From assembly GCA_903831805.1 (NCBI GenBank), contig CAIKZD010000009.1, positions 217,939-281,938 on the forward strand: a DNA stretch of 64,000 bases, read 5' to 3'. The position numbers and the translations under genes were made by a program. The stretch is from an uncultured bacterium. GTDB taxonomy: Bacteria; Patescibacteriota; Minisyncoccia; Moranbacterales; UBA2206. The notes beneath the pieces are model-generated. The model was given only the letters and a program-made list of their open reading frames with translations. It was not told where the DNA came from and did not search any database. Positions 41,297 to 60,178 of this stretch are shown here, in pieces. Every line of letters starts with the position of its first letter. The first letter of the stretch is position 1.

Positions 41297-41399
41297 GTCT
41301 AACGTTTCGGCATATCTGATGTTTGCCGTAGCGTAGCGGAGGCAAATATGGGTGGAGGCTCGCCGGAGGCGAACCGCAACCAGATATGCCGTGTTATGT
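41297..41399. repeat. F3 attC-like element copy a (103 bp)
   Basis: Ends GTCTAAC...GTTATGT on the plus strand (ACATAAC...GTTAGAC in gene sense). Inner inverted boxes ggcatatctg / cagatatgcc. Variable centre. Confidence 0.55.
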
Positions 41400-41475
41400 G
41401 ATGTGCATGTTTTACTTTAATCCCGATGGCAATCGGGATTGCTCTAAAAAAGAATTTTAATTTTGTTTTTTTGTT

Positions 41476-41520
41476 TTGGATTTTGGGCAGAGGGGTTAGG
41501 GGTGAATGCCCAAAATCCAA
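41476..41520. repeat. F1 hairpin element copy a
   Basis: ttggattttgggca-gaggggttaggggtgaa-tgcccaaaatccaa. The stem covaries with copies b and c. Confidence 0.6.
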
Positions 41521-41594
41521 AACTCCTTATTCTGTTTGAGGGAGGGGCAAGAGGGGAATTAAAGGGGTGAATTGCCCCGACCGAAAAAATTCAA

Positions 41595-42095
41595 TTAAAC
41601 TATCAATAAGACAAATAATAAAACTACTAAAACAAACAGGCATTTTGTACTGTTTTTAACATTATTCATTTTTTGATCAGCAATTATCGAGTTTGTATAT
41701 ATTTGCTCTGATATTTGCTTTTTTGCATCTTCTTCTGTTAATTTTTCCATTTCATTAAAATAATCAATCGGTTTTAACTTGGCGACATTTCCAAAGTAAA
41801 AAAGTGATTTATTTGTATTTGTATTTTTCAAACGAGGGAAAACGGAGCTGATTAAAAAGAATATTCCTAAAATAAATAGACCAATAGTTATTATAATTAA
41901 AATAGTATACAGACAAAGACCCCAGTTCTCAAAGTTTGAAATTGAGGAAATCACAATTCCTTTAAATGAAACAGTGCCTAAAAAAATTCCTGAATAATAA
42001 GCAGACAAAAACGCACTTTTTTTATCAGCAGACTGAATCCAGTCGCTAACTCTATTTAATTCATTTTGTAAAAAAGATAATTCTAGGTTTTTCAT
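41595..42095 (-). CDS. small 3-TM membrane protein, candidate effector paired with the cyclase
   Basis: 166 aa with a soluble N-terminal 30 aa, two adjacent TM helices, a roughly 60-aa charged loop and a C-terminal TM. A 3-bp gap separates it from the cyclase gene. Confidence 0.5.
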   Translation of the reverse strand: MKNLELSFLQNELNRVSDWIQSADKKSAFLSAYYSGIFLGTVSFKGIVISSISNFENWGLCLYTILIIITIGLFILGIFFLISSVFPRLKNTNTNKSLFYFGNVAKLKPIDYFNEMEKLTEEDAKKQISEQIYTNSIIADQKMNNVKNSTKCLFVLVVLLFVLLIV

Positions 42096-42098
42096 AGT

Positions 42099-42911
42099 TT
42101 AATTTAGTTTATCTATATAATTATCAGCACAGTGCACACACCAACCAACTTGGGTGTAATAAAATTTGTCTCCAAGCGTATCATCTGAAAAATCAGTAAC
42201 TTCTATAAAAACAGGATTTCTTTGTTCTAAAATGTCGGTATCGCCATTATGGCAGTTATATAATCCGAATTTCGGTTGCGCAACAAAATCTTTGTAGACT
42301 TCCTCAGATATTATTATTGGCGATTTGGCCCCATTAAATTTTTCAGGGGCGTCTTGGAATTGCTTGGATAATTTTGCAGCATTATTAACAAGTCTTCCTG
42401 CCCATACCTCATTATAGTCACCTCTCTTGCCGATCTTTTTGACTAAAATTTTGTCTTTATGGATGCCAATTTTACAACTAAGATTACCGCCTTCATCATC
42501 TTGAAATTTTGTTTTAATCTTTTCTTCAAAAATTTTTCTAAAAGTGATTGATGCGTAAAATGCTTTATACGAAGCATGCTCGCCTTCGTAGATAGCAAAT
42601 GCGCCATCTCCTTTTATATCTACATAGTCAGCACAGAAAGATTCATGATTAAAAACATCAACTAGCGTTTGAGTAAAGTAGTCATAGATCTTTGCCATTG
42701 TGACCGGATGTTTTTTGAATGAGATTTTTGACGATTTATCTAAGTCAACAAAAAGACAAACAAATTTATTATCACCACCAACCCAAGTAGGTTTTTCTAA
42801 GTAAGCATCTTCTTTGATGCTTGAAATTGATTCAATTTCAGCAATTTTAAAATCATCAAAGCGTTTTTCTGCCTTTTCCTTCAATTCTTCTATAAAGTCA
42901 TCAATTTGCAT
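42099..42911 (-). CDS. class III nucleotidyl cyclase homolog (adenylate/guanylate-cyclase fold; Pycsar/cNMP-cyclase-like)
   Basis: Metal-binding motifs CLFVDLDKSS (F.D..GFT-like) and VDIKGDGAFAIYEG (iGDa-like), plus VWAGRLVNNAAKLSK matching the conserved VWGd.VN.AaR transition-state region. Confidence 0.65.
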   Translation of the reverse strand: MQIDDFIEELKEKAEKRFDDFKIAEIESISSIKEDAYLEKPTWVGGDNKFVCLFVDLDKSSKISFKKHPVTMAKIYDYFTQTLVDVFNHESFCADYVDIKGDGAFAIYEGEHASYKAFYASITFRKIFEEKIKTKFQDDEGGNLSCKIGIHKDKILVKKIGKRGDYNEVWAGRLVNNAAKLSKQFQDAPEKFNGAKSPIIISEEVYKDFVAQPKFGLYNCHNGDTDILEQRNPVFIEVTDFSDDTLGDKFYYTQVGWCVHCADNYIDKLN

Positions 42912-42927
42912 ATTGTTATTATAAATA

Positions 42928-43584
42928 TTATAAATTATCCGTTACTCCAAAAAAATTCTTAATTATCGGATACTCTTGTTTTAAAAAGTATCTTCCCGAC
43001 TCGTTGTCTTTGATGAGAAAAAATTGTTTTTTTATACATTCCTCGTCTTCTTCCAAGCAGGCAATGCAAACGATAAAATCAATATGCGGATATTCTATGC
43101 TGACGGCAGTATTTTCTTTCCAGCTTTCTAAGTCTTTGTCATAAGTCCAGCCGAAACGGTTTAAAATTGTCTTTTTCTCAATAGCAGTGTTGTAGCAAAA
43201 CAATCCGCATAGTGGCTTGATGCCAGGGTCAATGGCTTTTATCCTTTCAAAATTCTTGTTCGTCTTTTTTATGTCTGGTCCGGTTGCGTTGGATTTTACT
43301 TCCAAAACTAATTTGCAATGTCGTGGATCAATCATTACTTGGTCGCCCAATGGGGTCGTGGTTGCCGTGGTTTCGTGAAATATCAAATCACATTCTCCGC
43401 TCTGTATTCCGTTTTTGGCGACTATGCCTTTTTTGCCTCGCAACGATTCTTTTCTTTTTAATACCAAATCACGCAAAAAGTCTTCTCGGATTGTTCCTCT
43501 GGGCAAGTGTTGTTGCACAAATTCCGACACTCGATATTGAGCGCGGAGCAGGTCTTCATAGTATTGTGCAAATATCTCGTCCAT
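42928..43584 (-). CDS. hypothetical protein with PD-(D/E)xK-like motif
   Basis: GECDLIFHE ... LVLEVKSN spacing is consistent with a restriction-endonuclease-like core. The assignment is weak. Confidence 0.35.
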   Translation of the reverse strand: MDEIFAQYYEDLLRAQYRVSEFVQQHLPRGTIREDFLRDLVLKRKESLRGKKGIVAKNGIQSGECDLIFHETTATTTPLGDQVMIDPRHCKLVLEVKSNATGPDIKKTNKNFERIKAIDPGIKPLCGLFCYNTAIEKKTILNRFGWTYDKDLESWKENTAVSIEYPHIDFIVCIACLEEDEECIKKQFFLIKDNESGRYFLKQEYPIIKNFFGVTDNL

Positions 43585-43593
43585 ACATAAAAA

Positions 43594-44718
43594 TTACAAT
43601 TCACCCTTAAACGCTTTTTGCATCAAGGCTTGAAATTGGGTTTCGAGTTCGTTGGATTGAGAAAGCATTTTTTGTTTAATTAATTCGGTTTTTTCTTTCA
43701 ATCCGAGATAAATTTTTTGCTCATCAAGACTTGGTACTAATATTTTTATTTTTTTAATAATACCTACATTTACAATTCCCATCGTCCCGCCATGAGATAC
43801 ATCTTTTATTTGTTTCTGTACTGATTGGCTAGTTAATAATTCTTTCAAAAATAACGGCAGTATAATATTTTGATTTGGTGTTATTTTCATTAGACGAGGA
43901 TTAATAATGCCTGGTTCAAATTTTTCTGGCACAACACTAATTTTCCCAAATGTTCCTACTAAGCTTATTAAAATATCTCCTTGTTGTATTTTACAACTTT
44001 CTAAGGTTCGATATCTTTCTTCGTTAATATAATAATCTCCATAATTGAAGTCATCTTTAATAACCTGTTCTTGTCCATATATTTTATAACCTGATTTTAC
44101 ATAAAATTCCTTCTTCAAAGATGAGCCAAATGGACCTGCCTTGATTCCATTTTTTTCTTTAATGGCAACATCATTAATTATTTGTATATTATAATTTTTC
44201 GGATTCTTCACTGGATCCCCAAACATCTCCAAAAACACCGACTTCAAATAATCATCCAAAAGCCCGATGGCTTGTTTTCGTTTTTGGCGAAGCGCGTCCG
44301 CCTCATCAAGAATTTTTACAATGCGTTTTTGGTCTTCGAGCGGTGGAAGTGGGATTATTGGATCAGTTAAATTATTTATCTTTATGTATTTTATAACTCC
44401 GCCAATAGATAATTCTCTTAATTTTTCAACATACTTAAATAAAAACCAATAAAGATATCGGGTATCCAAAACTGATTCGTCTTTACTTTCGATTATATAG
44501 GTTCTTTGATATGCATCGAATTTACCTTCGTAATATTTTACATTTAAATCACCATTTCCAGCCACAAGCACGCACTTACAATCATAAGAATATGAGCTTA
44601 TTTTTAAGGGCTTTTTGGAACAAGTAAAAAAAGGATACTCGCCATCAGGCGAGCTCGCATTTGCATCAAGTTTGCCAGTCCTTATTTTTACAAAATTTCC
44701 AAGTTTATTTTTAATCAT
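43594..44718 (-). CDS. hsdS: Type I restriction-modification specificity subunit
   Basis: Two target-recognition domains separated by the conserved central region (LPPLEDQKRIVKILDEADALRQKRKQA) and a C-terminal conserved helix (LVPSLDEQKIYL). Confidence 0.85.
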   Translation of the reverse strand: MIKNKLGNFVKIRTGKLDANASSPDGEYPFFTCSKKPLKISSYSYDCKCVLVAGNGDLNVKYYEGKFDAYQRTYIIESKDESVLDTRYLYWFLFKYVEKLRELSIGGVIKYIKINNLTDPIIPLPPLEDQKRIVKILDEADALRQKRKQAIGLLDDYLKSVFLEMFGDPVKNPKNYNIQIINDVAIKEKNGIKAGPFGSSLKKEFYVKSGYKIYGQEQVIKDDFNYGDYYINEERYRTLESCKIQQGDILISLVGTFGKISVVPEKFEPGIINPRLMKITPNQNIILPLFLKELLTSQSVQKQIKDVSHGGTMGIVNVGIIKKIKILVPSLDEQKIYLGLKEKTELIKQKMLSQSNELETQFQALMQKAFKGEL

Positions 44719-44720
44719 AA

Positions 44721-46241
44721 TTACAAATTTTTCAAATCACTAAGTCCAGCAACGATTTCTTGCTCCAGCGATTCAATCTTTCCCAAAATCACTTTTGGAT
44801 CTTCGTAAACCATTTCATCGTAATCCGTTACTTTGTAGCGATTGATACTCAAATCAAAATCAGCTTTTTCTATATCACTTTTATTAACATAGAAAAATTT
44901 ACTATTGAGCTTGTTTTCGGTTTGGTCTTTTCTTGTTTTCCATTTCGCCACAATATCCGGCAAATCACCCCCGCCGTTGATCTTGCTTCGCTTGTCGTCC
45001 AATGTGTAGCCGTCGGATTGCATATCATAAAACCAAACCTTTTCAGTTTCGCCGCCTTTTACAAATATCAAAATCGCGGTGCTTACTCCAGCGTAGGGCT
45101 TGAATACTCCGCTCGGCATCGAAATAACGCCTTGCAGTTCACACTCATTGATAAGCATCTTGCGCGCTTGCTTGTGGGCATTGCTAGAACCGAACAGCAC
45201 GCCGTCTGGCACAATCACACCGGCTCGTCCTCCGATTTTGAGGGATTTTATAATGGTATTGATAAACAATAATTCCGTTTTTGTCGTAGCGAGTGAGAGC
45301 GATTCGTTGATGTCGCCCTTATCAATACTGCCTTTGAAAGGCGGATTCGCCATGATGCAGTCATAAAAATTATTCTCGTCGTATTTTTTGGAGAGCGTAT
45401 CTTTTTGTTCGATGTTTGGATTGGAGATGCCGTGCATCATCAAGTTCATGAGTCCAATACGCACCATGCTTTCGTCCATGTCATAGCCGTAGAAAGTTTT
45501 TTCTTTGAGATGCGTCCATTGTCGCTCGTCGGTGAGCTTGTCGCCCAGATCGCCACGCGTCAGTCCGTTTTCATCAGTTTTTCTGTGTTCTTTGCTGGTA
45601 TGTGCTGTGAGAATATGCTGATAGGCACCGAGCAAAAATCCGCCTGTACCACAAGCTGGATCACAAATAGTATCGCCCAATTTTGGATCTACGAGTTCAC
45701 AAATAAGTTGAATGATGTGGCGCGGTGTGCGGAATTGGCCGAGCTTGCCGGCGCTCGTGATTTCTGAGAGCAAATATTCGTAGAGATCTCCCTGGGTGTC
45801 TTGAAAACCTTGTCCGGCCGAATCTTGCTTGGCGATTTCTTCAAAAATATCATCAATAATATTCACCGCTTCCACCAAAAGCGACGGCTTGGAAATGATA
45901 AAAACCGCGTTGCCCATGTGTTTGGCAAAGGGACTTTCTTCTTTGCCGATAGTTTTCAGAAATGGAAAAACTTTAGTTTGAATATGTGTCAGCATTTCGC
46001 CACCTTCCATTTGTCTGAAATGGCTCCAGCGCAAATTTTCTTTGTCATTTCCAAAAAGTGACTTGTACGCTTCTCCGGTAAATTCGGCGTCTTGTCTTTT
46101 CTTAATATCCATCTCGTCCAAGCGCTTCATAAAAAGCAAATAGGAAATTTGCTCAATAGCCGTGAGCGGATTGGATATGCCACCGCTCCAAAATTTATCC
46201 CAGAGCCTGCCAATTGATGATTTGAGTGTTGGATTAAGCAT
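44721..46241 (-). CDS. hsdM: Type I R-M N6-adenine DNA methyltransferase
   Basis: HsdM N-domain, AdoMet motif (DPACGTGGFL) and catalytic NPPF. Confidence 0.9.
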   Translation of the reverse strand: MLNPTLKSSIGRLWDKFWSGGISNPLTAIEQISYLLFMKRLDEMDIKKRQDAEFTGEAYKSLFGNDKENLRWSHFRQMEGGEMLTHIQTKVFPFLKTIGKEESPFAKHMGNAVFIISKPSLLVEAVNIIDDIFEEIAKQDSAGQGFQDTQGDLYEYLLSEITSAGKLGQFRTPRHIIQLICELVDPKLGDTICDPACGTGGFLLGAYQHILTAHTSKEHRKTDENGLTRGDLGDKLTDERQWTHLKEKTFYGYDMDESMVRIGLMNLMMHGISNPNIEQKDTLSKKYDENNFYDCIMANPPFKGSIDKGDINESLSLATTKTELLFINTIIKSLKIGGRAGVIVPDGVLFGSSNAHKQARKMLINECELQGVISMPSGVFKPYAGVSTAILIFVKGGETEKVWFYDMQSDGYTLDDKRSKINGGGDLPDIVAKWKTRKDQTENKLNSKFFYVNKSDIEKADFDLSINRYKVTDYDEMVYEDPKVILGKIESLEQEIVAGLSDLKNL

Positions 46242-49065
46242 AATGTAAAATTTTATTAGTAAATGACAAGATTTCCGTTTGCAACTGCGGAGTGAATAGC
46301 CCCAAGAAACCGCGAGCGTGCAATTTGGTAAATGGCTCGCTAACGAGATCTTTCTTTGTCAGTTCACCATTGTTGATAATAAAATCACGAAGTACAATCA
46401 GAAACTGGATTTGATTTGAAGCCAGTGTGTTATGTTCGGCAATAAATTCAGCAAAAGCCTCCGAGACTTTTTCGGAAAAAGTGACGAGTCCGCCAATACC
46501 CATAATGTATTTAATCAAATCCAAAAACTGTACCTTGCGGGCATCATAGGCTTTTTGCAGGTTCTCTTCGGTTGGATAGGGATCATACTCGTTTAGCGTG
46601 TCAGCCAGTTCTTCCACTTCTTCCTGCGTAATATCTGCACCTTGTTTTATTTTCTGCAATATTTTGTTTTCTGCTTCCAATTTTTTCACCAGCGCCTCAA
46701 CTTTTTCACGATATTTTTTGATAGTAATGCGTTCATGCGCCGGACCAAATTTGATAAATTCTTTTTCGCTTGTTATATCGCGTAAATCCAGAGAATCTTG
46801 GTCGGGCTTGATGCCTTCTTCGCGATATTTCATCAATGGAGCGATTTTTTGGATCAGAATTTCTAAGGCATTTTCATCGGCTTTTTCAAGATAGCCATTA
46901 TTCAATATCTCTTCTATCAGTTCTTTCTCTTTGACGACAACATTCACAGACAACGGCAAATCAGACACCATTTCAATAATTACTTCCGCAAGAGTTTTTA
47001 CCTTTTTATCTTGACCATCTTGTTCATCAAGTTTGGCGATGGAATAATATAAAACTTTAAGTTCAAAGCTCATTGCCTTGTAGTCTTCGCCGGTTCGCGT
47101 GCGCATAAGTGGCGCGATTTCCTTTTCTAAAAATAGTTTTTTATCTTCATTAAGTTTTTGCCAAAAGGTTTCATCGACTTTATCAATCTTGCTTTTTGCG
47201 TCCAAAATAACCACATTGTTTGGTGGAAGTTTGGCAATATCTTCTTTTAATTTTTGAATGGTATTCTGTACAAGCTCAGCATTATTTTGCGCTTCAGCCA
47301 GATTGAGTTTTTGTAGTTTAGTTTCAAAAAGACGGACAGGCAGCGGTTTTGATGGCTTATCTATTTTTCCGGTTGGGTTCATTTGAAAATATTCAAAATT
47401 TTCCCAACAATCAATGATAAGGAATTTATCTTTTACCTTGCACCATGGCTTTATTTTCTTAGCTTCCAAAAGTCTTGTTCCTCGCCCGATCATCTGCCAA
47501 AATTTGGTATAAGAAAAAACTGGTTTTACAAAAACAAGATTGACGAGTTCGCGCACATCTATACCAGTATCAAGCATATCCACGCTAATGGCGATGCGCG
47601 GAAAGTCTTTATTAACAAATTGATCGAGCAGACCGCCTTTTCCATAAACACGAGAATCGTCCGAAACGATAACTTTGGCAATATTGCCTTTATGTTCAGG
47701 GTAGAGATCATCAAAAACTTCTTGTAATCTTCGTGCGTGCTTCATCGTCATGGCAAAGAAAATAGTTTTGCCGGGCAGAGTTCCACTTTCGTCTTTTATG
47801 CACGATTCCATAAACTCTTGCACGATAAGCGCGTTCGTTCCTTTGTTGGTTACTTTTTTCTCAATTTCACTGCCATCATAATTTATTTCTGTTGGCTCTT
47901 TGCCGTCGGCAAGTAATTTTTGTTGTTCGGCAATGGTAATATTGTCTTTTCTTATTCCTTCTTTTTGGAATTTGGTGCGAACTTTTAGAACTTCAAAATC
48001 TGAAAGATATGGGGGCTTATTGTTTATCGCTTCCTCGTATGAGTAGGCATAAGTCGGTATGCCGTCTTCACATTCAAAAATACCAAAAGTATTATGCTCA
48101 ATCGCATCTTTTGGCGTAGCAGTTAAACCAAGCTGAACAGAATCAAAATAATCAAAAATATTTTTGTAAACATTGTAGATTGACCTATGACTTTCATCTG
48201 CCACAATCATGTCAAAAAAATGAGGACTAAGCGGACAGTCTTTATCTTCAATGATATTGAGCATTGTCGGATAAGTAGCACAATAAATTCGTCTATCCGT
48301 TACAATGTCATGCTCGCCGACTTTTGGCCAAACCGGAGCGTTTGGTAAAAATTCTTTAAAAGCATCAAGAGCTTGATTTCTAAGTGCGATTCTGTCCACT
48401 AAAAACAAAACTTTTTGCACTTTGTTTGCTCGCATCAACGACTCAATCATTGCCACGCAGGTTCTTGTTTTTCCGGTACCTGTTGCCATTACAAGCAATG
48501 ATTTTCTCTTTCCTTTGTCTAAGTTTTCAAAAACTGAGCGGATAGCCTCGATCTGATATGGTCGTCCAGCAATGTCTTTCTGGATTAATTCTTGGGAAAG
48601 TGGTTTCTCGTTTTTGCGCAAAAACAACATTCTTTCTAAATCTTTTTTTGTTGGAAATCCGTACACTTTGCGGGGTGGATATTTTTCAGTATCCCAAAAA
48701 TAAATATCGTGTCCGTTTGTATAAAAAACGAATGGCATATCCTTACCAGAATTTTTCTGAATATTTTCGGCATATTGACGGGCTTGTTCTTGTCCGACCC
48801 TCGCATCCTTCGAGGTTTTTTTTGCTTCTACAATTGCCAAAGGATAACCACTATCTCCAAGTAAGGCGTAATCAGCAAATTGAAAGCCTTGATATTCGTG
48901 TTCCGGCTCCTTAACCCCTTCTGGCAAGCCAATCCAAATATCAAGCTCGGATGTAACTTGTGCTGGATCATTAACTTTCCAGCCGGCTTTTGCGAGCCTT
49001 CCATCTATAATTTCTTGTCTTGTTTGTGCTTCAGTTTTTGTCATAATTATTTTCAAGTTAAACAA
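46234..49065 (-). CDS. hsdR: Type I R-M restriction subunit (SF2 helicase + nuclease)
   Basis: Typical HsdR N-terminus (TEAQTRQEIID..AGW), Walker A GTGKT and DEAH-box IVADESHRS. 943 aa. Confidence 0.9.
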   Translation of the reverse strand: MFNLKIIMTKTEAQTRQEIIDGRLAKAGWKVNDPAQVTSELDIWIGLPEGVKEPEHEYQGFQFADYALLGDSGYPLAIVEAKKTSKDARVGQEQARQYAENIQKNSGKDMPFVFYTNGHDIYFWDTEKYPPRKVYGFPTKKDLERMLFLRKNEKPLSQELIQKDIAGRPYQIEAIRSVFENLDKGKRKSLLVMATGTGKTRTCVAMIESLMRANKVQKVLFLVDRIALRNQALDAFKEFLPNAPVWPKVGEHDIVTDRRIYCATYPTMLNIIEDKDCPLSPHFFDMIVADESHRSIYNVYKNIFDYFDSVQLGLTATPKDAIEHNTFGIFECEDGIPTYAYSYEEAINNKPPYLSDFEVLKVRTKFQKEGIRKDNITIAEQQKLLADGKEPTEINYDGSEIEKKVTNKGTNALIVQEFMESCIKDESGTLPGKTIFFAMTMKHARRLQEVFDDLYPEHKGNIAKVIVSDDSRVYGKGGLLDQFVNKDFPRIAISVDMLDTGIDVRELVNLVFVKPVFSYTKFWQMIGRGTRLLEAKKIKPWCKVKDKFLIIDCWENFEYFQMNPTGKIDKPSKPLPVRLFETKLQKLNLAEAQNNAELVQNTIQKLKEDIAKLPPNNVVILDAKSKIDKVDETFWQKLNEDKKLFLEKEIAPLMRTRTGEDYKAMSFELKVLYYSIAKLDEQDGQDKKVKTLAEVIIEMVSDLPLSVNVVVKEKELIEEILNNGYLEKADENALEILIQKIAPLMKYREEGIKPDQDSLDLRDITSEKEFIKFGPAHERITIKKYREKVEALVKKLEAENKILQKIKQGADITQEEVEELADTLNEYDPYPTEENLQKAYDARKVQFLDLIKYIMGIGGLVTFSEKVSEAFAEFIAEHNTLASNQIQFLIVLRDFIINNGELTKKDLVSEPFTKLHARGFLGLFTPQLQTEILSFTNKILHYA

Positions 49066-49082
49066 TGTTATTGTATTCGTTT

Positions 49083-49155
49083 TCCCCTTATAAATAAATC
49101 GTTTTCGTAGCGTAGCGGAGAAAACACCTTATACCCCTTTCTAAATAAATAAAAA
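49083..49155. repeat. F2 shared promoter/leader element copy a (immediately 5' of hsdR)
   Basis: ccccttataaataaatcgttttcgtagcgtagcggagaaaacaccttatacccct; near-identical copies lie 5' of the 429-aa gene and the GIY-YIG gene. Confidence 0.5.
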
Positions 49156-52185: not shown

Positions 52186-52192
52186 TTATTTC

Positions 52193-52387: not shown

Positions 52388-52431
52388 TTGATTTTGGGCA
52401 GAGGGGTAAGGGGTGAATGCCCAAAATCAAA
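52388..52431. repeat. F1 hairpin element copy c
   Basis: ttgattttgggca-gaggggtaaggggtgaa-tgcccaaaatcaa, followed by a second G-rich-loop hairpin at 52448..52500. Confidence 0.6.
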
Positions 52432-52471
52432 AACTCCTTATTCTTAAACAAAAAGGCAAAAAGGAAGGGGT

Positions 52472-53992
52472 TTAAGGGGAGGGAATTTTTGCCTTTTTGT
52501 TTTCTTTCACCAATTTACTCATTTTTATTTTTGGAGATATTCCTAACTCAAAACATTTTCTTGCCCACGATTCAATCTTTTGTTTTAAAATTATAGAATT
52601 AATTTCGGATATTTTTTTAGGTAAATTCTTATTTTGGATAACTAACCAAATGCAATAATTTTTAAAATCAATATCAATCTTTTTTGTGTTCGCTTTTTTG
52701 CCGATGAGTTCTAATGTATTGTTTGCTTGATCACAGACATAACCTAATTTTTGAGCAGTTCCAAATTTTACGGCATAAACAGTTTCGCCCTTTTTTGAAT
52801 CCCACGCCTCAACTAGCGTTCCAGCTTTAACCTTAATAATTGAAAAGTTTTTATCGGCATCAGAATATCCATGTTCTTTTAGACTTTTATTAAAATCACC
52901 TTCTATGCCAGTAATTTCAAGTAAGTCATTTTCAACTTCATCCAGATCAATGCTATCGATGTATTCGTTTAATTGATCCATATAGTCCTCATTAAATTTC
53001 ATCCACTTACCTTGCGTTAGAAGGACATTTTGATCATCAATAATATAATCTATCGATTCTTTTACAGTTTTAGAAAACGGCTTAGCATCTTCCTTGATTA
53101 TATGAACCCTTATACTGAGAATTTGCTCCTTGGGAATGGAATTCGTTGATATAAAAGTATTTAATCTATCGATTGTAAGTTCTTCGAATTCAGCCGATGT
53201 AAAACTGTCTAAGGAAAATTTATATTTTTCCTGTCCAGAGAAAATAAAATCAATTCCGATAAGCTCATGACTATTTGAAGTGAAATCTGTGCTATCTTTT
53301 GAGGCAATAATCTCTTCTGCTAATTTATTTTCATACCCAACTGTTATAGGGGATGTATCAAGAATGATTGTTCGCGGTAATTTAAATAATTCAGGAGATT
53401 CATAAACTTTAATTATTGATTCTAAAAATTCTGGCAATGCTTCTTTCTCAACTAGTGGACTTAGTAATGAAGAAGAACCAAATTTACCTGACTTGCCAAA
53501 ATTTTCTATAAAATCTTTAGAAATAGATGATTGTAAATAATCGATAGATTCACCACTCTCAATATCCAGTTGGCTATTTTTTGTATAACTTTTTATTTCT
53601 TTTTTCTTTTTTCCCGCGAATTTTTTTGACGATTTTTGTCTGATATCTTTTTGATTCGCAATTCTTTTGGCTATATGAATGCCAAAATCATGATCGCAAA
53701 ATTGTCGTAGATAAAAATGCGATTTCCCATAGCTTAATGCAAAACAATATTTTTCATTTTCCCAAATATAAGCGCAAAAGTAGATTCTATTTTCGGGCTT
53801 ATCTTCGTTGAAAAAATCTTTGTATGTTTCTGCCCACGGAATTTGAATCGGATCAATATCTTTGGAAAAATAAAAATCACCTTTCCAGCCTTTTTCTTCG
53901 CTCGAGTTAATATTTTTAAGTCCTAATGATTCAAATTTATCTTTTAAATCATTGACTTTGTCTTTTGGAATTTTAAAAATATTTAGCTTCAT
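52472..53992 (-). CDS. hypothetical 506-aa protein, last gene of the type IIS R-M operon (resembles the sporadically distributed TIGR04141-like family from memory; unverified)
   Basis: No catalytic motif recognised. Separated by a 6-bp gap from the REase candidate. Confidence 0.5.
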   Translation of the reverse strand: MKLNIFKIPKDKVNDLKDKFESLGLKNINSSEEKGWKGDFYFSKDIDPIQIPWAETYKDFFNEDKPENRIYFCAYIWENEKYCFALSYGKSHFYLRQFCDHDFGIHIAKRIANQKDIRQKSSKKFAGKKKKEIKSYTKNSQLDIESGESIDYLQSSISKDFIENFGKSGKFGSSSLLSPLVEKEALPEFLESIIKVYESPELFKLPRTIILDTSPITVGYENKLAEEIIASKDSTDFTSNSHELIGIDFIFSGQEKYKFSLDSFTSAEFEELTIDRLNTFISTNSIPKEQILSIRVHIIKEDAKPFSKTVKESIDYIIDDQNVLLTQGKWMKFNEDYMDQLNEYIDSIDLDEVENDLLEITGIEGDFNKSLKEHGYSDADKNFSIIKVKAGTLVEAWDSKKGETVYAVKFGTAQKLGYVCDQANNTLELIGKKANTKKIDIDFKNYCIWLVIQNKNLPKKISEINSIILKQKIESWARKCFELGISPKIKMSKLVKENKKAKIPSP

Positions 53993-53998
53993 GCTTAT

Positions 53999-55516
53999 TT
54001 ATGCGGTTACTTCATTTAAAGAGGTTTTCATCTCAAGGCTATTAACAAATTTATCAATATTTGAGATTCTCACTTCCAAACCATCTTTTTTGATAAAATC
54101 AAAGTAGCGTTCGGTATCAATAAAAGATTTTGGCGAGATAAACACGGAATATGATTTTGTGCCTTTTTTTACATATTCTTCAAGGTGTCGATGTATAGAA
54201 AACGACTCTCTGATATGCTGTTGCGTTCCAGTCAGTAAAGTTACTTCGATCAAAACTGTGTCTTTTTCTTCCAAACATTCAATGTCGGGGCTTCCGCCAG
54301 ACGCAAAACTTGTTGGCAAGCCTTCATCGTCGGATATGAAATTAGGTTTTACGATAACATCTGGTAATTTTTTGAGGATTGCCAATGAAGTTAAAAATTC
54401 CAATCGTAATGGTTGCTCAATGACTTTCAAAATATTATCGCTAGAAGATTTTTTCTGTGCCAAATTAAGAAGTTCGGTTTTAATTGAATCCCAAGCATAA
54501 TGATCAACCCATTTTTCCAATTCTGCCTTTGTGGTTTTCGCTGGTGCTCCAAATACGGTAAGCGTTGAGATTAAATCGTGGTCGACTTGTCCGATATACT
54601 CAAAAAATTCTTTTTCCGTTTCAAATTCTTTGTAGGAAATATAATTTTTTAAAATATAATCAACGGTTGTAGATTCTTTTGAGTTTATATCTATAAAACG
54701 ACCACCGCCACGCAAAGAAAGTAAGCCAGTTAAACGCATTTTTCGTATAAAATCGTCAGGATAATCACCAAGGATTGAATTATCATCTCTCTTTGTTTCG
54801 TTTAGCAATTCATAGCAAAGATCTAAAATTACTTCGTTGCTCGGTGTATAACCATGTTTTTTGCGTAATTTTTTAATTTCTCGATATAAACTTTCAGCGT
54901 TATCGTTTTGCCAACATAGCAACAATGGTATTTCCGATCTGGATATACCAGCACCCTTGTATGCTGGGTCATTATTCAAAAGTTTTATGGTTTGTATAAG
55001 CAAAATAAGCGGAACATTTTTATTTAAAACGCGACGAAATGGATTTTGGCGTTGATATTTTGCAAAAGCATTTGCAAAAACCATTAACTCATTTTCTGGC
55101 TTTTCTTTGTCCAATAACATCTTTCCGCTTTCGGAAAATTTTATTTCTTCATTTTGCCAATACCAAACAAAACCAAGTTCTTTGGCAATTTTAAACCAAG
55201 TATCAAATCTTGATGGCCATCCTTTTTCAAACCCTGCTTCTTTGTGGCTTTGAGGGTTGTCGGAAAATACTTTTTTGGTTTCAGTTTCGCTTAATTCAAT
55301 CTCATTTTTCCATTTATCTTTTACAGCCGAAGTTACTTTCATGGGTTGGTATAATCCTTTTTGAATTAAGGATTTGGCGACTTTATCAATAATTTCGTTT
55401 GTTAAAATTTCGCCGTCATATTCCGCAAGTACGGTCAAAAAATCCTTCAACCGTTCAGGATTCCTCATTGTTGTTGTAAATAGCAATGGTTTGTATTCAG
55501 ATTGTCGTTTAGTCAT
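53999..55516 (-). CDS. AlwI-family (type IIS, MlyI/PleI/N.BstNBI-like) restriction endonuclease candidate
   Basis: N-terminal LLFTTTMRNPERLKDF resembles the AlwI-family N-terminal motif. The C-terminal SPDIECLEEKDTVLIEVTLLTG resembles the family's PD..E..EVT catalytic region, as recalled for N.BstNBI. It lies adjacent to two Dam-class methyltransferases. Confidence 0.55.
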   Translation of the reverse strand: MTKRQSEYKPLLFTTTMRNPERLKDFLTVLAEYDGEILTNEIIDKVAKSLIQKGLYQPMKVTSAVKDKWKNEIELSETETKKVFSDNPQSHKEAGFEKGWPSRFDTWFKIAKELGFVWYWQNEEIKFSESGKMLLDKEKPENELMVFANAFAKYQRQNPFRRVLNKNVPLILLIQTIKLLNNDPAYKGAGISRSEIPLLLCWQNDNAESLYREIKKLRKKHGYTPSNEVILDLCYELLNETKRDDNSILGDYPDDFIRKMRLTGLLSLRGGGRFIDINSKESTTVDYILKNYISYKEFETEKEFFEYIGQVDHDLISTLTVFGAPAKTTKAELEKWVDHYAWDSIKTELLNLAQKKSSSDNILKVIEQPLRLEFLTSLAILKKLPDVIVKPNFISDDEGLPTSFASGGSPDIECLEEKDTVLIEVTLLTGTQQHIRESFSIHRHLEEYVKKGTKSYSVFISPKSFIDTERYFDFIKKDGLEVRISNIDKFVNSLEMKTSLNEVTA

Positions 55517-55520
55517 AATT

Positions 55521-56426
55521 TTAATAGTTAGTAATCAGAACTTCTTTAATTATCTTTTTGCCGTTGTTATGATAATTAATGTAGTTGCTTTCAATTTTGT
55601 GTACCTTGTATTTTTTCATCCATTCTAATAAAAAATCATTTTTGCTCCCGTTATAGTGAGTAACATTTGATAAAGCGAATTTAACACCTTTTTTGTCTAA
55701 GACATCAATCATTTTCAATAAATCAATTTCTAATTCCTTGTTCCATAATTTATTATATTCGCTTGCGGATATTAAGTATGGTGGATCTAAATATACAAAA
55801 TCATTTTTTGAATATTTTTTGTCCGCAAAAAACTTTTTGAAATCTTTTGAAGTTATAGATATTTTTTTATCATGTACAAAATCAAAGTAGCCGTTCAAGG
55901 CGTTAATCACATTTTTATTAAAATCAACATTGCCAACAGGTAAATTAAATTTTCCTCCGCCATTGAATCTTAACATTCTATTAAATCCATAAATAAGTAG
56001 GATGTATAAAATCAAGGGGTCGTTTTTTTGATAATTATTTACGCTCATTCTTAATTTATCGTATCCTTCCTTATTAAATCTTGCGTAATAGGTTTTTTTA
56101 AACTCCTTTTTTAACGAATCAGGGACAATATCTTTTTTATATGAGTGCGAAAATTTATATTTGTGGATTATTTTTTCGGTATCCTTGAAAAACTTTTCTG
56201 GATTTTTTGAACTGGCGATTAAAAGTTTTTGAATATTTATCAGATGTTTGTCTATATCATTGAGAAAATATTTTTTTGCCTCAATATTCAGAAATACCGT
56301 GCCACCGCCGACAAAAGGTTCATAAAAATTATTTATTTCTTTGGGAAATAAATTTATGAGTTGTTTCATCAACTTATATTTATCGCCGACATAAAACAGG
56401 GGCGATCTTTTTATTTTATTGCTCAT
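55521..56426 (-). CDS. D12-class (Dam-like) N6-adenine DNA methyltransferase
   Basis: YEPFVGGGTVFLN AdoMet motif and catalytic DPPY (VYLDPPYLIS). Confidence 0.8.
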   Translation of the reverse strand: MSNKIKRSPLFYVGDKYKLMKQLINLFPKEINNFYEPFVGGGTVFLNIEAKKYFLNDIDKHLINIQKLLIASSKNPEKFFKDTEKIIHKYKFSHSYKKDIVPDSLKKEFKKTYYARFNKEGYDKLRMSVNNYQKNDPLILYILLIYGFNRMLRFNGGGKFNLPVGNVDFNKNVINALNGYFDFVHDKKISITSKDFKKFFADKKYSKNDFVYLDPPYLISASEYNKLWNKELEIDLLKMIDVLDKKGVKFALSNVTHYNGSKNDFLLEWMKKYKVHKIESNYINYHNNGKKIIKEVLITNY

Positions 56427-58231
56427 ATTTTTGCTTTCGTTACAAACAGGTATTCCTTGTGATTATTGAAATTGGTATTGCCTGCATTAAAATGTCTATA
56501 ATTTTTTTCAAAAACTTTGGTTGGTCCTTTTTTCTGCAAAATCTGTTCAATCTCTTGGAGTGTAATTTTGTTTTTTGATGAATTACTCTTTGAATCGTAA
56601 GTGTTATTGTATGAAACGACCAAAAATTTAGCGTCAAGGTCTCTCACGAGTTCCGCAAATTTATCTTTGGCGTTGGCTCGGCAGTAGTCGCTCATATTTT
56701 CCGGGTCTGGTTTTAACGCAACCCCATGAAGCTTTGGCTTGTCCCACTTAGTTAATGTTTCAAGTACATGGTAAAATCTGCTGTATTGTCTTGAGTTGTA
56801 AGGTGGGTCAATGTAAACCACATCAGCATTAATTTTTTTTGCCAGATTGTTTGTGTCTTCCTGAAAAATAGTTATTTCTTGCGTATCTATCGGATCAATC
56901 GGTTTCATGAAAAAACTATCATTTACAAATTCTTTTTTAAAATATGCGTCAAAATGTCCGACTGTGTTGGCAATTTTATCGGCGGTATAAAGCAACGAGG
57001 CGATTAACATAAAATATTCTCTCTCAGTTAAGTTTTTCCTGTTTTCCTCTATATTTTCACGAATAAAGCCGATGATTTTCGCTGAATTTTTACTAAAAAA
57101 TTTACCGCCAAAATTTTTAGAAAAATAATTTTCCTCTAAATCATCGCCATAAATATTGTTGTAACTTTTAATAATGTTATCGATTTTGACTTTATTCCAT
57201 GCCTCGTTTCCAAAAAAAGCCTGATATATCGCGTAATTTGAATGCAGAAAGTCGTTTAATAAAACTTTTTCAAAGTGTTTGGTTGCAACAGCGGATACAA
57301 CACCCGTTCCTGCAAAAATATCCGCAAAGGAATTGCCACTGCATTCTTTATTTATTATAGAAAAAATCCATTCAATCAGCTTGTGTTTGTTACCAATATA
57401 TCTGCGATTGTGTAATTGAAGATGGTTTTCTTTCACTTGTGGGATATAAAAATAATTTTCTTGGATTTTTTCAGCGGTTATTTCATAGGATGGTCGTTCA
57501 GTTTCAAACATAGCAAAAAGCGTGCCTTGTATTCCGTCTGCAACATAATCAACGCTTGCTTTTTCCTTATTTAATTTTTCGTAGAAACTGTAATGATTAT
57601 TTTCAGAGATGATAATAAAATCAATAACTGGTATTCCCATTATTTCACCAGCTTGTACGATTTTTTCAATAATTTGATTATCCTTTTCGCTTGGTAAAGA
57701 ATCGCCCGAAGGGTGATTATGAACTAAAATTACACTGGCGGCGTTTAATTCAGTCGCGGGATAAAAAATTTCTCTCGGATGTAGTAGCGCTTTATCTAAA
57801 AGACCGACACTAACAACTTCTTTTTTCAACAAAACATTTCGTGCGTTTAAATAAAGACAAACTAAATGTTCTTTTTTCTTGTCTCTTAAATCGTAAGTAA
57901 GAGATAAAATATCTTGAGAATTTTTTATAACAATCTCGTTGGTTTTGTTTTCGTCGTAAAATCTTTTTACTAATGAAATTGCGGAAGCAATTTGCAATGC
58001 TTTTGCTTGTCCGATTCCTGAAATCTCTAAAAGATCATCAACGGTTATATTCAAAAAGTTTTTACCGAATTTTTTGATAATATTCTCAGAAAGCTGTCTG
58101 ACATTTTTTCCCTTGATTCCGCTACCCAAAAGAATTGCCAAAAGATCACTCTTTGAAAGTGCATCAGCTCCTTTTTTCAGAAACCTTTCTCTCGGACGAT
58201 CAATTTTTGGTATATCCTTAATTTTTGGCAT
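56423..58231 (-). CDS. RadC-like JAB/MPN domain fused to a D12-class N6-adenine DNA methyltransferase
   Basis: N-terminal HhH plus RadC signature (LLHPREIFYPATELNAASVILVHNHPSGD). C-terminal Dam motifs including DPPY (VVYIDPPYNSRQY). Confidence 0.75.
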   Translation of the reverse strand: MPKIKDIPKIDRPRERFLKKGADALSKSDLLAILLGSGIKGKNVRQLSENIIKKFGKNFLNITVDDLLEISGIGQAKALQIASAISLVKRFYDENKTNEIVIKNSQDILSLTYDLRDKKKEHLVCLYLNARNVLLKKEVVSVGLLDKALLHPREIFYPATELNAASVILVHNHPSGDSLPSEKDNQIIEKIVQAGEIMGIPVIDFIIISENNHYSFYEKLNKEKASVDYVADGIQGTLFAMFETERPSYEITAEKIQENYFYIPQVKENHLQLHNRRYIGNKHKLIEWIFSIINKECSGNSFADIFAGTGVVSAVATKHFEKVLLNDFLHSNYAIYQAFFGNEAWNKVKIDNIIKSYNNIYGDDLEENYFSKNFGGKFFSKNSAKIIGFIRENIEENRKNLTEREYFMLIASLLYTADKIANTVGHFDAYFKKEFVNDSFFMKPIDPIDTQEITIFQEDTNNLAKKINADVVYIDPPYNSRQYSRFYHVLETLTKWDKPKLHGVALKPDPENMSDYCRANAKDKFAELVRDLDAKFLVVSYNNTYDSKSNSSKNKITLQEIEQILQKKGPTKVFEKNYRHFNAGNTNFNNHKEYLFVTKAKI

Positions 58232-58233
58232 AA

Positions 58234-59082
58234 TTATTTTTTGTAAATTTCTTCAAGAGTTTTTCCATTTTTGGTTTTCCATTTTTTCCATCCGCTTGTT
58301 GAGTTTCCCAAAATAATATCTGAAGCTGCGCTTGGGCTATTAAAAACATAATCCTTGGTGAATATATAAAGATCACTATCTTTCTTTTCCAAATATCCAT
58401 TTAAAATTAACTTCTCGATGTTCTTTGAGTTTCTTTCGGCTACCGCACTAGAAAATTGAGTTGTGGCTGTAGAATCTTTATATACAACAAAACCTTCGTT
58501 GGTCATACGGCCACTAGCTAAAGCCATTTTGCCACCACATGTAAACAATGGATCGGATGAGTTTGGTTGCTCTTTTGAGGTAATCTCTTGCAAAATAGGA
58601 TAACCGACCGCAGTAAGAAGTAATTTTAAGTTACTTAAAAATTCTTCCATTTCAGCAATATCGGCTTCGGACAATGAGGGCAGTACTGATTTGGCGCCAT
58701 TCTCTAAATTAAATCTTTTTACTAATGTAGCAATTTCTATACACCTACTTTCAAGATATTTTACATGTGCTTTTGTGAGGTTATTGTCTTTACTTACAAA
58801 AGCTATTGCAGTAAACCAAAAGTCTTTTGAGCTATCATGTGTAATCAATCTGTTCCATAAATTTTCAGCTTCACCTATGTATGCAGTAGACAGTAGGGCT
58901 TCTTCATCTTCTTTTCCAATTAAAAAATAAACTGCAGGCTTGTTGCAATCGGGGCGTTGTTTCGTGTCCTTGAGTTTATTACGTGGAATAACTATTGCTT
59001 GACCCACCCAGTTGCTTAACTCAACAGTTTTTAGACCATTTGGTTCACCATCGACGAGAAAAATTTTAATTGTCTTTGCCAT
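58234..59082 (-). CDS. GIY-YIG nuclease with DUF4357-like C-terminal domain
   Basis: VYFLIG ... YIGEAENLWNRLITH are GIY-YIG motifs. First gene of the operon. Confidence 0.6.
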   Translation of the reverse strand: MAKTIKIFLVDGEPNGLKTVELSNWVGQAIVIPRNKLKDTKQRPDCNKPAVYFLIGKEDEEALLSTAYIGEAENLWNRLITHDSSKDFWFTAIAFVSKDNNLTKAHVKYLESRCIEIATLVKRFNLENGAKSVLPSLSEADIAEMEEFLSNLKLLLTAVGYPILQEITSKEQPNSSDPLFTCGGKMALASGRMTNEGFVVYKDSTATTQFSSAVAERNSKNIEKLILNGYLEKKDSDLYIFTKDYVFNSPSAASDIILGNSTSGWKKWKTKNGKTLEEIYKK

Positions 59083-59119
59083 ATTTTATCTAGGTCAAGT
59101 AATTGAATTATATCAGTTT

Positions 59120-59245
59120 TCCCCTTATAAATAAATCGTTTTCGTAGCGGAGCGGAGAAAACACCTTATACCCCTATATAAATAGATAAAAAAACTTATT
59201 TTTCCTTATTATTAAAAAAGCAAATTTAAAAAAAGAAAAAAGAAA
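59120..59245. repeat. F2 shared promoter/leader element copy c
   Basis: ccccttataaataaatcgttttcgtagcggagcggagaaaacaccttatacccct...ataaaaaaacttatttttccttattattaaaaaagcaaatttaaaaaaag. Confidence 0.5.
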
Positions 59246-59282
59246 GAATTTTATTTCACATAACTCTTTATATACGAACTGA

Positions 59283-59311
59283 TTGATTTTTTGTTGTTAA
59301 TTGGCTATAAT
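59283..59311 (+). promoter_or_regulatory. near-consensus sigma70 promoter TTGATT-N17-TATAAT for the recombinase gene
   Basis: Hexamers and spacing read directly from the sequence, 30 nt upstream of the ATG at 59342. Confidence 0.45.
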
Positions 59312-59341
59312 CCAGATATAAACTTTAAATCATAATGTGTT

Positions 59342-60178
59342 ATGAATGAAAGTTATTATCCAAGTCAAGATCCAATTTTAAAATTGAAGCAGGAAATGAA
59401 ATTGCGGAAGTTTAGTCCGAAAACCGTCAAGTCCTATTTATATTATATCACGGATTTACTGAAGCAATCAAACAAAAATCCCAAAACTGTCAATACGGAC
59501 GATATTCGGGGATATTTAGAATATCTAGCTGACAAAAATTTCGCTGCTTCAACCCTAAATGGTGCCTATAGTGCTTTCAAACTCTACTTTGAAAAAATCC
59601 TTTATCGTCATTTCTTTGCCAATATTCCACGCGCCAAATGCCCCAAAAAATTGCCGGAAACCCTCACCAAAGAAGAGGTGAAAAAAATTCTAGGCACGAT
59701 TCAGAACGTAAAACACAAGCTGTTACTAGGATTGATGTATTCATCAGGACTGCGAGTTTCGGAAGTTGTGAATTGCAAGGTCAAAGATTTGGATTTTGAA
59801 AGCAAATTGATGCGGGTGCGCCAAGCCAAGGGAGCTAAGGACAGAATGACTATCTTATCAGAAAAAATGATTGTTGTTTTGCAAAGATATTTAAAGAATA
59901 AAAAATCTGACGACTATGTTTTCGAAAGCGACCGTGGTGGCAAACTGACTGAAAGAACGGCTCAGAAAATTTTTTGCGACGCCTTGCAAAAATCTGGCAT
60001 CAAAAAACCGGCTACTTGCCACAGTTTGCGCCATTCTTTTGCCACTCACCTCTTGGAATCCGGCACCAGCATCCGCTATATCCAAGAACTTCTTGGCCAT
60101 GCACGCCTCGAGACCACGCAAATTTACACCAAAGTGGCCAACACGAACCTGCAAACTATCAAAAGTCCATTAGATTAG
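59342..60178 (+). CDS. tyrosine site-specific recombinase (Xer/IntI-like)
   Basis: R..H.LRHSFATHLLESG...IQELLGHARLETTQIYTKV catalytic R-H-R-Y region. The KVKDLDF..RVRQAKGAKDR patch and the KSPLD tail resemble integron integrases, but the IntI-specific extra domain is absent. 278 aa. Confidence 0.85.
   Translation: MNESYYPSQDPILKLKQEMKLRKFSPKTVKSYLYYITDLLKQSNKNPKTVNTDDIRGYLEYLADKNFAASTLNGAYSAFKLYFEKILYRHFFANIPRAKCPKKLPETLTKEEVKKILGTIQNVKHKLLLGLMYSSGLRVSEVVNCKVKDLDFESKLMRVRQAKGAKDRMTILSEKMIVVLQRYLKNKKSDDYVFESDRGGKLTERTAQKIFCDALQKSGIKKPATCHSLRHSFATHLLESGTSIRYIQELLGHARLETTQIYTKVANTNLQTIKSPLD

Follow-up and report, generated by a model that had tools for sequence, protein, structure and literature searches.

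The region from 40.2 to 59.3 kb of a 64,000-nucleotide stretch of contig CAIKZD010000009.1 (GenBank assembly GCA_903831805.1, an uncultured Patescibacteriota bacterium; the whole stretch is referred to below as the window) is, with a probability that we put at roughly 70%, an array of mobile gene cassettes that site-specific recombination has put together at a dif-like site, which lies directly upstream of the gene for a tyrosine recombinase of the Xer family. Directly observed, and carrying this reading, are a family of folded elements (F3) with their structure, covariation, orientation and placement, the complementarity of the cassette ends, the positions of the junctions and the family of the recombinase. 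An earlier note on this DNA had read it as integron-like, rather than as an integron, and that description is supported by the co-orientation of the elements, the conservation of their structure over their sequence, boxes that belong to individual cassettes and homology that breaks at AAC. The F3 elements of the window are listed here with their covariance-model scores:

41297-41399, + strand: F3-1, folded site of cassette C1 (106 bits, and fold)
49214-49294, + strand: degenerate F3, the fifth copy (39.7 bits; fold -23.4 kcal/mol, z = -6.9; ends complementary at 4/4 variable positions)
49391-49585, + strand: F3-2, folded site of cassette C2, with a long central region and the variant left box GGATATC (56.5 bits)
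50462-50611, + strand: F3-3, folded site of cassette C3 (73.3 bits, and fold)
52193-52319, + strand: F3-4, folded site of cassette C4 (107.2 bits, and fold)
40375-40422, + strand: sixth F3, truncated to a remnant, which closes a KilA-N cassette on its 3' side (83% identical to the F3-4 interior)

The covariance model (R1) was trained on 22 short F3 copies from the window and from related loci, relatives of the recombinase having been taken with about 10 kb of flank on each side to give 80 loci (numbered L below). Its matches in the window are exactly 41289-41407, 49207-49302, 49383-49594, 50454-50620 and 52185-52327, all on the + strand; the four copies and degenerate fifth described in the earlier note are therefore real and are recovered with no others, and the truncated sixth at 40375-40422, overlooked by the note, was also missed by the model in the window scan. 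The boxes, which had been described as of RYYYAAC and GTTRRRY types, agree with the sequence in F3-1 (GTCTAAC...GTTATGT on the + strand), F3-3 (GCCTAAC...GTTAGAC), F3-4 (GTCTAAC...GTTATGT) and the right end of F3-2 (GTTAGGC). The left end of F3-2, which is 87-91% identical to elements in L012, L013, L020 and L045, has no AAC-type box on the + strand; its GGATATC (49391-49397) pairs with GATATCC (49288-49294) of the degenerate copy, which makes 49222-49397 an empty mini-cassette. A comparable gene-free, GC-rich mini-element of about 165 nt is present in L056 (around 8701-8868), where identical copies end at 1044 and 3413 and where at least three junctions of a single array have it inserted precisely at AAC|GT; the mini-cassette of the window has the boxes ATC/GAT in place of AAC/GTT.

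Every F3 copy folds much better than shuffled sequence (z = -3.9 to -6.9). The fold is an outer stem around two inner hairpins, the whole element forming a three-way junction. In the R stem ATTTCGnnyAAC is paired with GTTrnnCGAwgT; next come the L stem, of 11 bp (nnnATATCyG), and the tip, which is branched. A one-sided spacer, GTwn, separates the R stem from the L stem; after a one-pair extension of the stem it measures 3-4 nt on the 5' side versus 0-1 nt on the 3' side, and the asymmetry reported previously (as 4 versus 2 nt) stands. An extra base is found at one 5'-arm position in 27/113 copies of the model-fitted alignment. The centre is variable, as had been claimed, but not featureless: it holds the two hairpins and the conserved unpaired motifs GAAGTT, AAAwTTGGG and gAACC, the GG of the second pairing with the CC of the third. 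Hairpin A often has the loop GTAGCGTAGCGGA on a covarying mini-stem, and hairpin B varies in length. Inserts of 400-600 nt are held by hairpin B in eight loci (L003:6453-7080, L010:3734-4305, L026:3058-3520, L033:559-1037, L039:3505-3979, L053:8011-8547, L056:1040-1674 and L063:6113-6561), the one in L003 including a 71-residue open reading frame on the opposite strand, and it appears that the tip of the hairpin has room for cargo or for nested insertions. The loop motif GTAGCGTAGCGGA(G) recurs on a short covarying stem both in hairpin A (41322-41345, 52218-52243) and in a module upstream of the first gene of cassettes (49100-49125, 52077-52102, 59135-59160), and could be a candidate binding site for an accessory factor.

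The conservation is of structure rather than of sequence. A plain MAFFT alignment of 22 copies gave, in RNAalifold, 26 pairs, 17 of them with double (compensatory) changes, confirming the compensatory substitutions that had been noticed in the inner 10-11-bp arms. Over 113 copies, in an alignment that was fitted to the model and whose pairing counts therefore lean to structure, 94.8% of cells are standard-paired while the sequence varies, compared with 71% in shuffles and 34-49% when the partners are slid; the covariation score is 0.535 versus 0.148 for shuffles and 0.04-0.065 for slid partners, and two-sided changes occur at 9/10 L-stem pairs and 6/6 hairpin-A pairs. The plain MAFFT/RNAalifold result agrees. 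Among the non-Watson-Crick cells of helices 2-5, G·T outnumbers A·C by 74 to 17, in a count from the model-fitted alignment that is biased towards G·U; this excess marks the + strand as the wobble-tolerant one and favours it as the probable folded strand, antisense to the cassette genes and equivalent to the integron 'bottom strand'.

These observations bear on a conventional alternative, namely that short dif-like cores recombine as double-stranded DNA, as in the pdif modules of Acinetobacter, and that F3 is a pair of inverted cores whose hairpin is a by-product. Every module is indeed flanked by alternately oriented sites, as in pdif arrays. The L arms, nevertheless, vary freely and stay paired (one pair is CG in 34, GC in 33, AU in 22 and UA in 11), which would not be expected if a single protein-binding sequence were present twice; structure is also conserved in hairpin A and in the GG/CC helix, both inside what would be the spacer; and the strand bias of the wobble pairs indicates a folded single strand. 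We regard the double-stranded alternative as distinctly improbable.

Across the sampled loci the covariance model found 113 F3 in 39, with recombinases 47-100% identical to that of the window. Without exception the 113 are upstream of the recombinase gene and on its sense strand; the 624 kb downstream, like the other strand, yielded no match. Every F3 is thus co-oriented and on the side of the recombinase from which the array diverges, and the spacer between the inverted cores of the double-stranded alternative is never inverted. A model-free structural scan (AACGT with tight spacers) gave 59 matches on the recombinase-sense strand and 2 on the other, with 9 expected by shuffling; a looser scan (AAC...GTT with 10-nt arms) was rejected as noise in AT-rich DNA, with 378 versus 303 matches per strand. 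Among unrelated viral contigs that a sequence pattern had selected, 408 kb in all, the model returned a single true match and a weak one. Carriage of F3 by phages is unsupported: the 48 pattern stretches in viral contigs are about what chance would give, and the covariance model confirmed L113 alone. There (L113:10681-10798, IMGVR_UViG_3300001336_000172) a genuine F3 of 102 bits lies at the very end of the only such viral-labelled contig, which may be a misclassified Patescibacteria fragment. Archaeal homologues from DPANN lineages, at 38-46% identity, had no F3 detectable by this covariance model.

The F3 elements might instead be selfish repeats, such as miniature inverted-repeat transposable elements (MITEs) or repetitive extragenic palindromes (REPs), or transcribed RNAs (terminators, insulators, small RNAs), lying in foreign DNA and unlinked to the recombinase. 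Conserved non-coding modules around the elements, the identical repetition of the 165-nt mini-element in L056 and the stability of arrays within populations would suit such an origin. It does not account for an orientation and placement that are exclusive relative to the recombinase across 39 loci, leaves the complementarity of the cassette ends and the AA|C junctions unexplained, and is at odds with a favoured folding strand that is antisense to the cassette genes. In addition, a permissive Rfam search of 39.5-61.5 kb returned sub-threshold chance matches only, and F3 therefore belongs to no known RNA family. We consider this origin very improbable indeed.

The units delimited by the F3 boxes, and the modules that recur within them, are as follows:

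41304-49221, - strand: cassette C1, with a type I restriction-modification system (HsdR, HsdM, HsdS), a PD-DExK/DUF6602 protein and Pycsar (PycC cyclase and PycTM)
49398-50468, - strand: cassette C2, with a 237-residue protein without significant family match
50469-52199, - strand: cassette C3, with a 429-residue protein without family match
52200-59264, - strand: cassette C4, with DUF6119, an AlwI-type restriction enzyme, two Dam-type methylases (one a RadC fusion) and PDC-S14/DUF4357
40197-41303, - strand: decayed distal cassette, with a KilA-N protein (PADLOC candidate defence family PDC-S22)
41453-41533, with copies at 50657-50737 and 52364-52444: conserved hairpin module at the cassette 3' end, 85-95% identical in L003, L004, L027, L030, L056, L063 and L076
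59083-59193, with copies at 49046-49156 and 52094-52184: conserved module upstream of the cassette's first gene, with the hairpin loop GTAGCGnAGCGGA that is also in F3 hairpin A

Each cassette consists of an upstream module, one to six genes, a 3' hairpin module and an F3 at its recombinase-distal end; the remnant of the sixth F3 makes the KilA-N gene a further, decayed cassette. Integron cassettes are promoterless and read from a shared Pc promoter; here the upstream module precedes the first gene in C1, C3 and C4, and in a scan for promoters (sigma-70 consensus) and terminators neither class rose above shuffles, the recombinase promoter alone emerging. The two ends of each block form inverted repeats that begin at the boxes and reach 25-100 nt outward: 41393-41471 with 49151-49221 in C1 (complementarity 92-94%), 49580-49637 with 50411-50468 in C2 (83%), 50606-50655 with 52150-52199 in C3 (90%) and 52313-52415 with 59162-59264 in C4 (75%). 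The same relation is evident in the boxes themselves. At their four variable positions, the right box of one F3 and the left box of the next, facing each other across a cassette, are complementary at a mean of 3.08/4 and perfectly so in 39/74 cases, compared with a mean of 1.73/4 and 8/111 perfect for the two boxes within one F3, and a mean of 1.89 and 7.6% perfect for random pairs; all four cassettes of the window score 4/4. A cassette is opened by a box from its own site, the signature by which integron cassettes were originally defined: there the first bases of a cassette (TTRRRY) come from its own attC. When cassettes are closed into circles, their predicted folding energies are -59 to -74 kcal/mol, versus -29 to -50 kcal/mol when integrated, the predicted circular fold being one long hairpin with F3 at its tip and the cassette ends extending the F3 stem.

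In other loci the cassettes typically measure 0.4-1.5 kb between elements and have one gene each, with varied functions (among them NUDIX, DKNYY, polyprenyl synthase and CDPS), the 7-8-kb defence cassettes of the window being at the upper end of the size range. The cassettes examined encode defence or accessory genes only, and no replication, phage, maintenance or transfer functions. The 429-residue (50759-52048) and 237-residue (49640-50353) proteins of the single-gene cassettes have no Pfam or PADLOC match and, given their neighbours, are candidates for unknown defence functions.

Three features lie at the recombinase end of the array:

59253-59280, + strand: proximal insertion site (attI-like), a dif-like 11-6-11 dyad, ATTTCACATAA CTCTTT ATATACGAACT, conserved beside the recombinase in loci at 47-93% identity
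59283-59311, + strand: promoter-like site for the recombinase, TTGATT-17-TATAAT, which abuts the insertion site and whose TTGAT and TAAAAT/TATAAT boxes are conserved across loci
59342-60178, + strand: tyrosine recombinase of 278 amino acids, of the XerA-like or 'Cand' Xer group (Pfam Phage_integrase and SAM-like N domain)

In all loci the consensus at the proximal site, upstream of the recombinase promoter, is ATTTCGnnyAAC-nnGTT-ATATnCGAAC. Its arms match the reverse complement of Escherichia coli dif (ATTTAACATAA TATACA TTATGCGCACC, a sequence checked against the literature) at 10/11 and 7/11 positions by our count, and the crossover would fall at AA|C, 59263/59264 in the window. The + strand of F3 opens with the same left arm and AAC, and after the GTwn bulge its L arm, nnnATATCyGAAG, resembles the right arm of the site; the spacing from ATAT to GTT on the continuous 3' strand of the folded element is 5-6 nt versus 5 nt in the site. 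Given the shared left arm and AAC, the likeness of the right arm and this spacing, the folded F3 appears to mimic the double-stranded proximal site. That the site is an ordinary double-stranded dyad would suit the conventional double-stranded reaction; the central regions of F3 and site, on the other hand, have only AAC in common at the junction. An exchange of both strands would need an overlap of identical sequence, and the exchange of a single strand is the better fit.

In the reaction that we propose, the folded duplex would copy the geometry of the proximal site, the R stem standing for its left arm, the bulge for its central region and the L stem for its right arm. The recombinase would bind both partners and swap one strand at AA|C, and the junction would be resolved by replication, as in integron attC x attI and CTXφ attP(+) x dif recombination; single-strand exchange followed by replication is the route of integrons and of CTXφ (PMC7790495). 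New cassettes would thereby enter beside the recombinase. A cassette excised between two F3 would leave as a circle, with its long complementary ends on either side of F3, whose stem would grow to 45-60 bp, and with a predicted junction of boxA(n+1) and the CGTwn of F3(n), which for C3 would read ...TTATTTCGTCTAA|CGTTACTCATATCTG. We infer that this recombinase is the catalyst, acting on a single-stranded substrate by the exchange of one strand, and that the system as a whole works like an integron or like an array of single-stranded-DNA integrative mobile elements exploiting Xer (IMEXs) of the CTXφ type.

The recombinase passes the cut-off of NF040815 (XerA-like, with the NCBI name 'site-specific tyrosine recombinase/integron integrase'; 241.7 bits versus 220), as do its relatives in L035, L063 and L083, and fails that of the integron integrase model TIGR02249 (219.6 bits versus 265, with the match split into two stretches). 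It scores 154 with PRK15417, for which the cut-off is 435, and 198 and 193 bits with the XerD and XerC models, both far under cut-off. Its best solved relative is Pyrococcus XerA (PDB 4a8e, E = 1e-47), followed by Vibrio IntI4 (PDB 2a3v, E = 3e-42). Residues 183-201 of the query face residues 180-241 of VchIntIA (IntI4), 18 versus 61 residues, so that about 43 amino acids are gone; the IntI-specific insertion (the I2 helix, around patch III) is absent, as had been noticed at first reading, and the C-terminal SPL tail still aligns with IntI4. The VKDLDF/KGxKDR and HSLRHSFAT motifs that had been taken as IntI-like are present but are common to XerA as much as to IntI, and, on the test that the earlier note had set for its own reading, the protein sits by its scores with Xer-type proteins. 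With its XerA-like scoring and the missing insertion, this is not a bona fide integron. A weak Pfam ResT/TelK match (E = 4.5e-4, below cut-off), which would point to a telomere resolvase, was taken as ordinary cross-family similarity.

The recombinase could simply be the housekeeping chromosome-dimer resolvase of the organism, a single Xer like XerA, XerS or XerH, with the site as the chromosomal dif and the cassettes as IMEX-like hitch-hikers that stack at it as CTXφ, RS1 and TLC do in Vibrio. The chemistry would be unchanged; the primary function and the direction of selection would differ. The XerA equivalog score above the NCBIfam cut-off and the dif-like site point this way, as do the more than 5000 close homologues, almost all from Patescibacteria (those at 65-93% identity being nearly all from that group, namely Moranbacteria, Parcubacteria and Falkowbacteria, which marks the window as DNA of a candidate-phyla bacterium). 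Such proteins were placed by Smyshlyaev et al. in a 'Cand' subgroup, presumed to be the Xer stand-in of candidate phyla (PMC8138268). In L035 (9900-10000) a recombinase 67% identical to that of the window and a dif-like site are present and no F3 lies beside them, the upstream genes being co-directional and core-like, so that this locus is an empty platform, with gene and site but no cassettes. The site of XerS/difSL likewise adjoins its recombinase gene. Against a resolvase, GC skew does not change sign at the site, either in the window or in L003, L012, L020, L027, L030, L035 and L043. The idea of a dif at the terminus was set aside for this reason, the skew failing to switch in most loci over about 10 kb of flank on each side; the site thus does not appear to mark a skew switch, which is where dif would be expected. 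The gene and its array also lie beside different core genes in different lineages (on the 3' side prmC, prfA-prmC, scpAB, def-fmt or smpB-infC), and the cassettes are without replication or phage functions.

Analogous hairpin cassettes, furthermore, occur beside 38%-identical, NF040815-positive, XerA-like homologues in Bacteroidota. Bacteroidota generally have separate XerC/D genes. The elements there (L083: 6325-6452, 8340-8469 and 9838-9870; L078:845-1050; L082:9290-9425) have the form ...CTAAC|GTTTTGGGGCTTGCCGAAGG...GGCAAACCCTT|GTTGTGCGAT, with cassette ends complementary to ATCGCACAAC|ACCCAAATATACGCATTGCGCC; L083 is from the cultured Epilithonimonas caeni DSM 17710 (NZ_AUFK01000009). Weighing both sides, we hold the housekeeping explanation to be unlikely, though it is the most serious of the alternatives. 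The lack of an IntI domain for extrahelical bases, it should be added, would also be in keeping with the double-stranded reaction considered above.

Returning to the cassette array proper, comparison of related arrays places their differences at the box. L004, L005 and L006 have an identical recombinase, and in the 3.16 kb downstream of its gene that were compared L004 and L005 match at 100% identity. Leftward of the site the two arrays diverge, ...CGGACAAC being followed by GTTTCAG (F3) in L005 and by TAGTTATATCC (proximal site) in L004. L004 reads ...TTTCGGACAAC and then TAGTTATATCCGAACTG (proximal site), and L005 has the same cassette end (TTTCGGACAAC) and then GTTTCAGTATATCTG (F3), with an extra cassette, bounded by GTTGTGC...GCACAAC, between that F3 and the proximal site. 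In the window, C4 at its upstream end (59152-59264) matches L003:4499-4611 with 97% identity up to the C of AAC, after which comes F3 in L003 and the proximal site in the window; the other end of C4, 52111-52442, is 88% identical to L003:604-950, and the enclosed cargo and the position in the array differ. The KilA-N gene is 82% identical in DNA to L030:5495-6340, in another array with a recombinase 58% identical. In these alignments, homology between related arrays breaks exactly at the AAC of the box; within the window's own population the array is invariant. Within L004 (9226-9837) and L005 (1411-2010 and 2325-3401), encoded proteins share an N-terminal zinc-ribbon/transmembrane part at 87% identity and differ in their C-terminal domains (Ltp versus OB-fold), and an 81% identical Ltp domain is present in a further cassette of L005, which suggests that cassettes exchange domains.

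Besides the bias in the wobble-pair count given above, several points weigh against a cassette array worked by this recombinase. The enzyme is a XerA-like protein without the I2 region by which IntI reads folded attC, and the recognition of hairpins and the avoidance of a second strand exchange would need another way. The non-coding modules of the cassettes are 70-97% conserved between cassettes with unrelated cargo, and homologous recombination in them may explain part of the shuffling. L004 and L005 do not differ by a clean one-cassette indel, and their shared neighbouring cassette is 77-87% identical. Finally, the array is invariant in at least six contigs with this exact recombinase, and the P0022 and P0072 populations are likewise invariant in their first cassettes; no turnover within populations was seen, contigs with identical recombinases all sharing their first cassettes in the window's strain, P0022 and P0072, and cassette turnover is therefore slow or rare.

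In several respects the arrangement is that of integrons: recombinase gene and co-oriented array point away from each other, the cassettes terminate in imperfect palindromes conserved in structure over sequence, the outer boxes are RYYYAAC and GTTRRRY, the crossover would lie at AA|C on the bottom strand, the opening box belongs to its cassette, insertion is beside the recombinase, the hairpin tip is variable and the cargo includes defence genes. Unlike integrons, it has a recombinase that lacks the IntI-specific insertion (I2 helix) and is XerA-like by score, a folded site that is a three-way junction with a branched tip and conserved unpaired motifs, an asymmetry that takes the form of a 3-4-nt bulge between R and L stems and not of extrahelical bases within L, cassette ends complementary for 25-100 nt past the boxes, cassettes that own a conserved upstream module and hold up to six genes (7-8 kb), and a proximal site that is dif-like. 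With IMEXs of the CTXφ type, in which a folded single-stranded attP(+) recombines with dif via the host Xer proteins, it shares a Xer-type recombinase, a dif-like double-stranded target, an incoming forked hairpin of two inverted half-sites that mimics dif, minimal homology at the crossover and tandem accumulation. It differs from them in that its units are small gene cassettes, dozens of different ones all oriented alike, with no genes for replication or of phage type, that the site is apparently not at the terminus, and that the recombinase gene is coupled to the site and is single, without a XerC/XerD pair. The pdif modules of Acinetobacter are likewise discrete gene modules bounded by inverted Xer-type sites and shuffled between replicons; theirs, however, are plain 28-bp double-stranded plasmid sites with no adjacent recombinase gene, structured element or fixed orientation, whereas the inverted half-sites of the present system come in pairs around a folded element that is conserved. 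Archaeal XerA/dif, XerS/difSL and XerH/difH have in common with the present system a lone recombinase, XerA being its best sequence match; they resolve chromosome dimers at the terminus, and hairpin-bounded cassette arrays are not known there.

Full-text literature searches found no description of such cassette arrays in Patescibacteria or beside Xer-type recombinases lacking I2. Tools of the IntegronFinder type define integrons by the IntI-specific domain, and a study of archaeal integrons still demanded it (PMC9668308). In the accepted view, gain of the I2 helix let integron integrases use folded single-stranded sites, and Escudero et al. proposed that integrons arose from a Xer-like enzyme, hijacked by single-stranded-DNA IMEXs, that gained I2 (PMC7790495). 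On balance we lean towards regarding the present system as a widespread, undescribed cassette platform of Patescibacteria, with analogues in Bacteroidota, in which a XerA/'Cand' recombinase without I2 acts on folded single-stranded three-way-junction sites that mimic its dif-like site. Such a platform would either survive from the stage of the 'Xer-like ancestor hijacked by ss-IMEXs' (PMC7790495) or have arrived at the integron principle independently.

The integron-type genetic signatures of cassette capture here come with a Xer-type enzyme that lacks the I2 domain. If the reading is right, cassette capture at hairpin sites needs no I2, the system offers a concrete picture of how integrons could have arisen from Xer/dif and single-stranded-DNA hitch-hikers, and a large pool of mobile cassettes, defence systems included, exists in candidate-phyla bacteria and is missed by current integron searches. 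It may also account for the frequent assembly breaks just upstream of the recombinase gene: the contig ends within 500 nt upstream in 26/80 loci, compared with about 4 just downstream, which suggests that assemblies break at the variable or repeat-rich array. The analogous locus in cultured E. caeni DSM 17710 would open the question to experiment.

The island as a whole has a GC content of 30-39%, versus 42-47% outside, and is flanked by two core genes:

38731-39828, + strand: prfA, left bound of the island
60188-61138: prmC, right bound of the island

Its only + strand gene is that of the 278-residue recombinase, all others being on the minus strand; in relatives, too, the 5' side of the recombinase has a variable gene set, mostly on the minus strand, and the 3' side the conserved core genes named above. 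Downstream of prmC, at 61341-61447, the window has short tandem-like repeats (TTTTTGGTAACTTTTTTCACAGCTTTCTTCAC...), where a minus-strand gene of 42 residues is called in related contigs. In L008 (92-3054) the order is recombinase, prfA, prmC, and in the window (compared over 38731-61138) prfA lies beyond the far side of the array; the recombinases are 87% identical, and by the different gene order either the recombinase-plus-array unit or prfA has been relocated between these close relatives.

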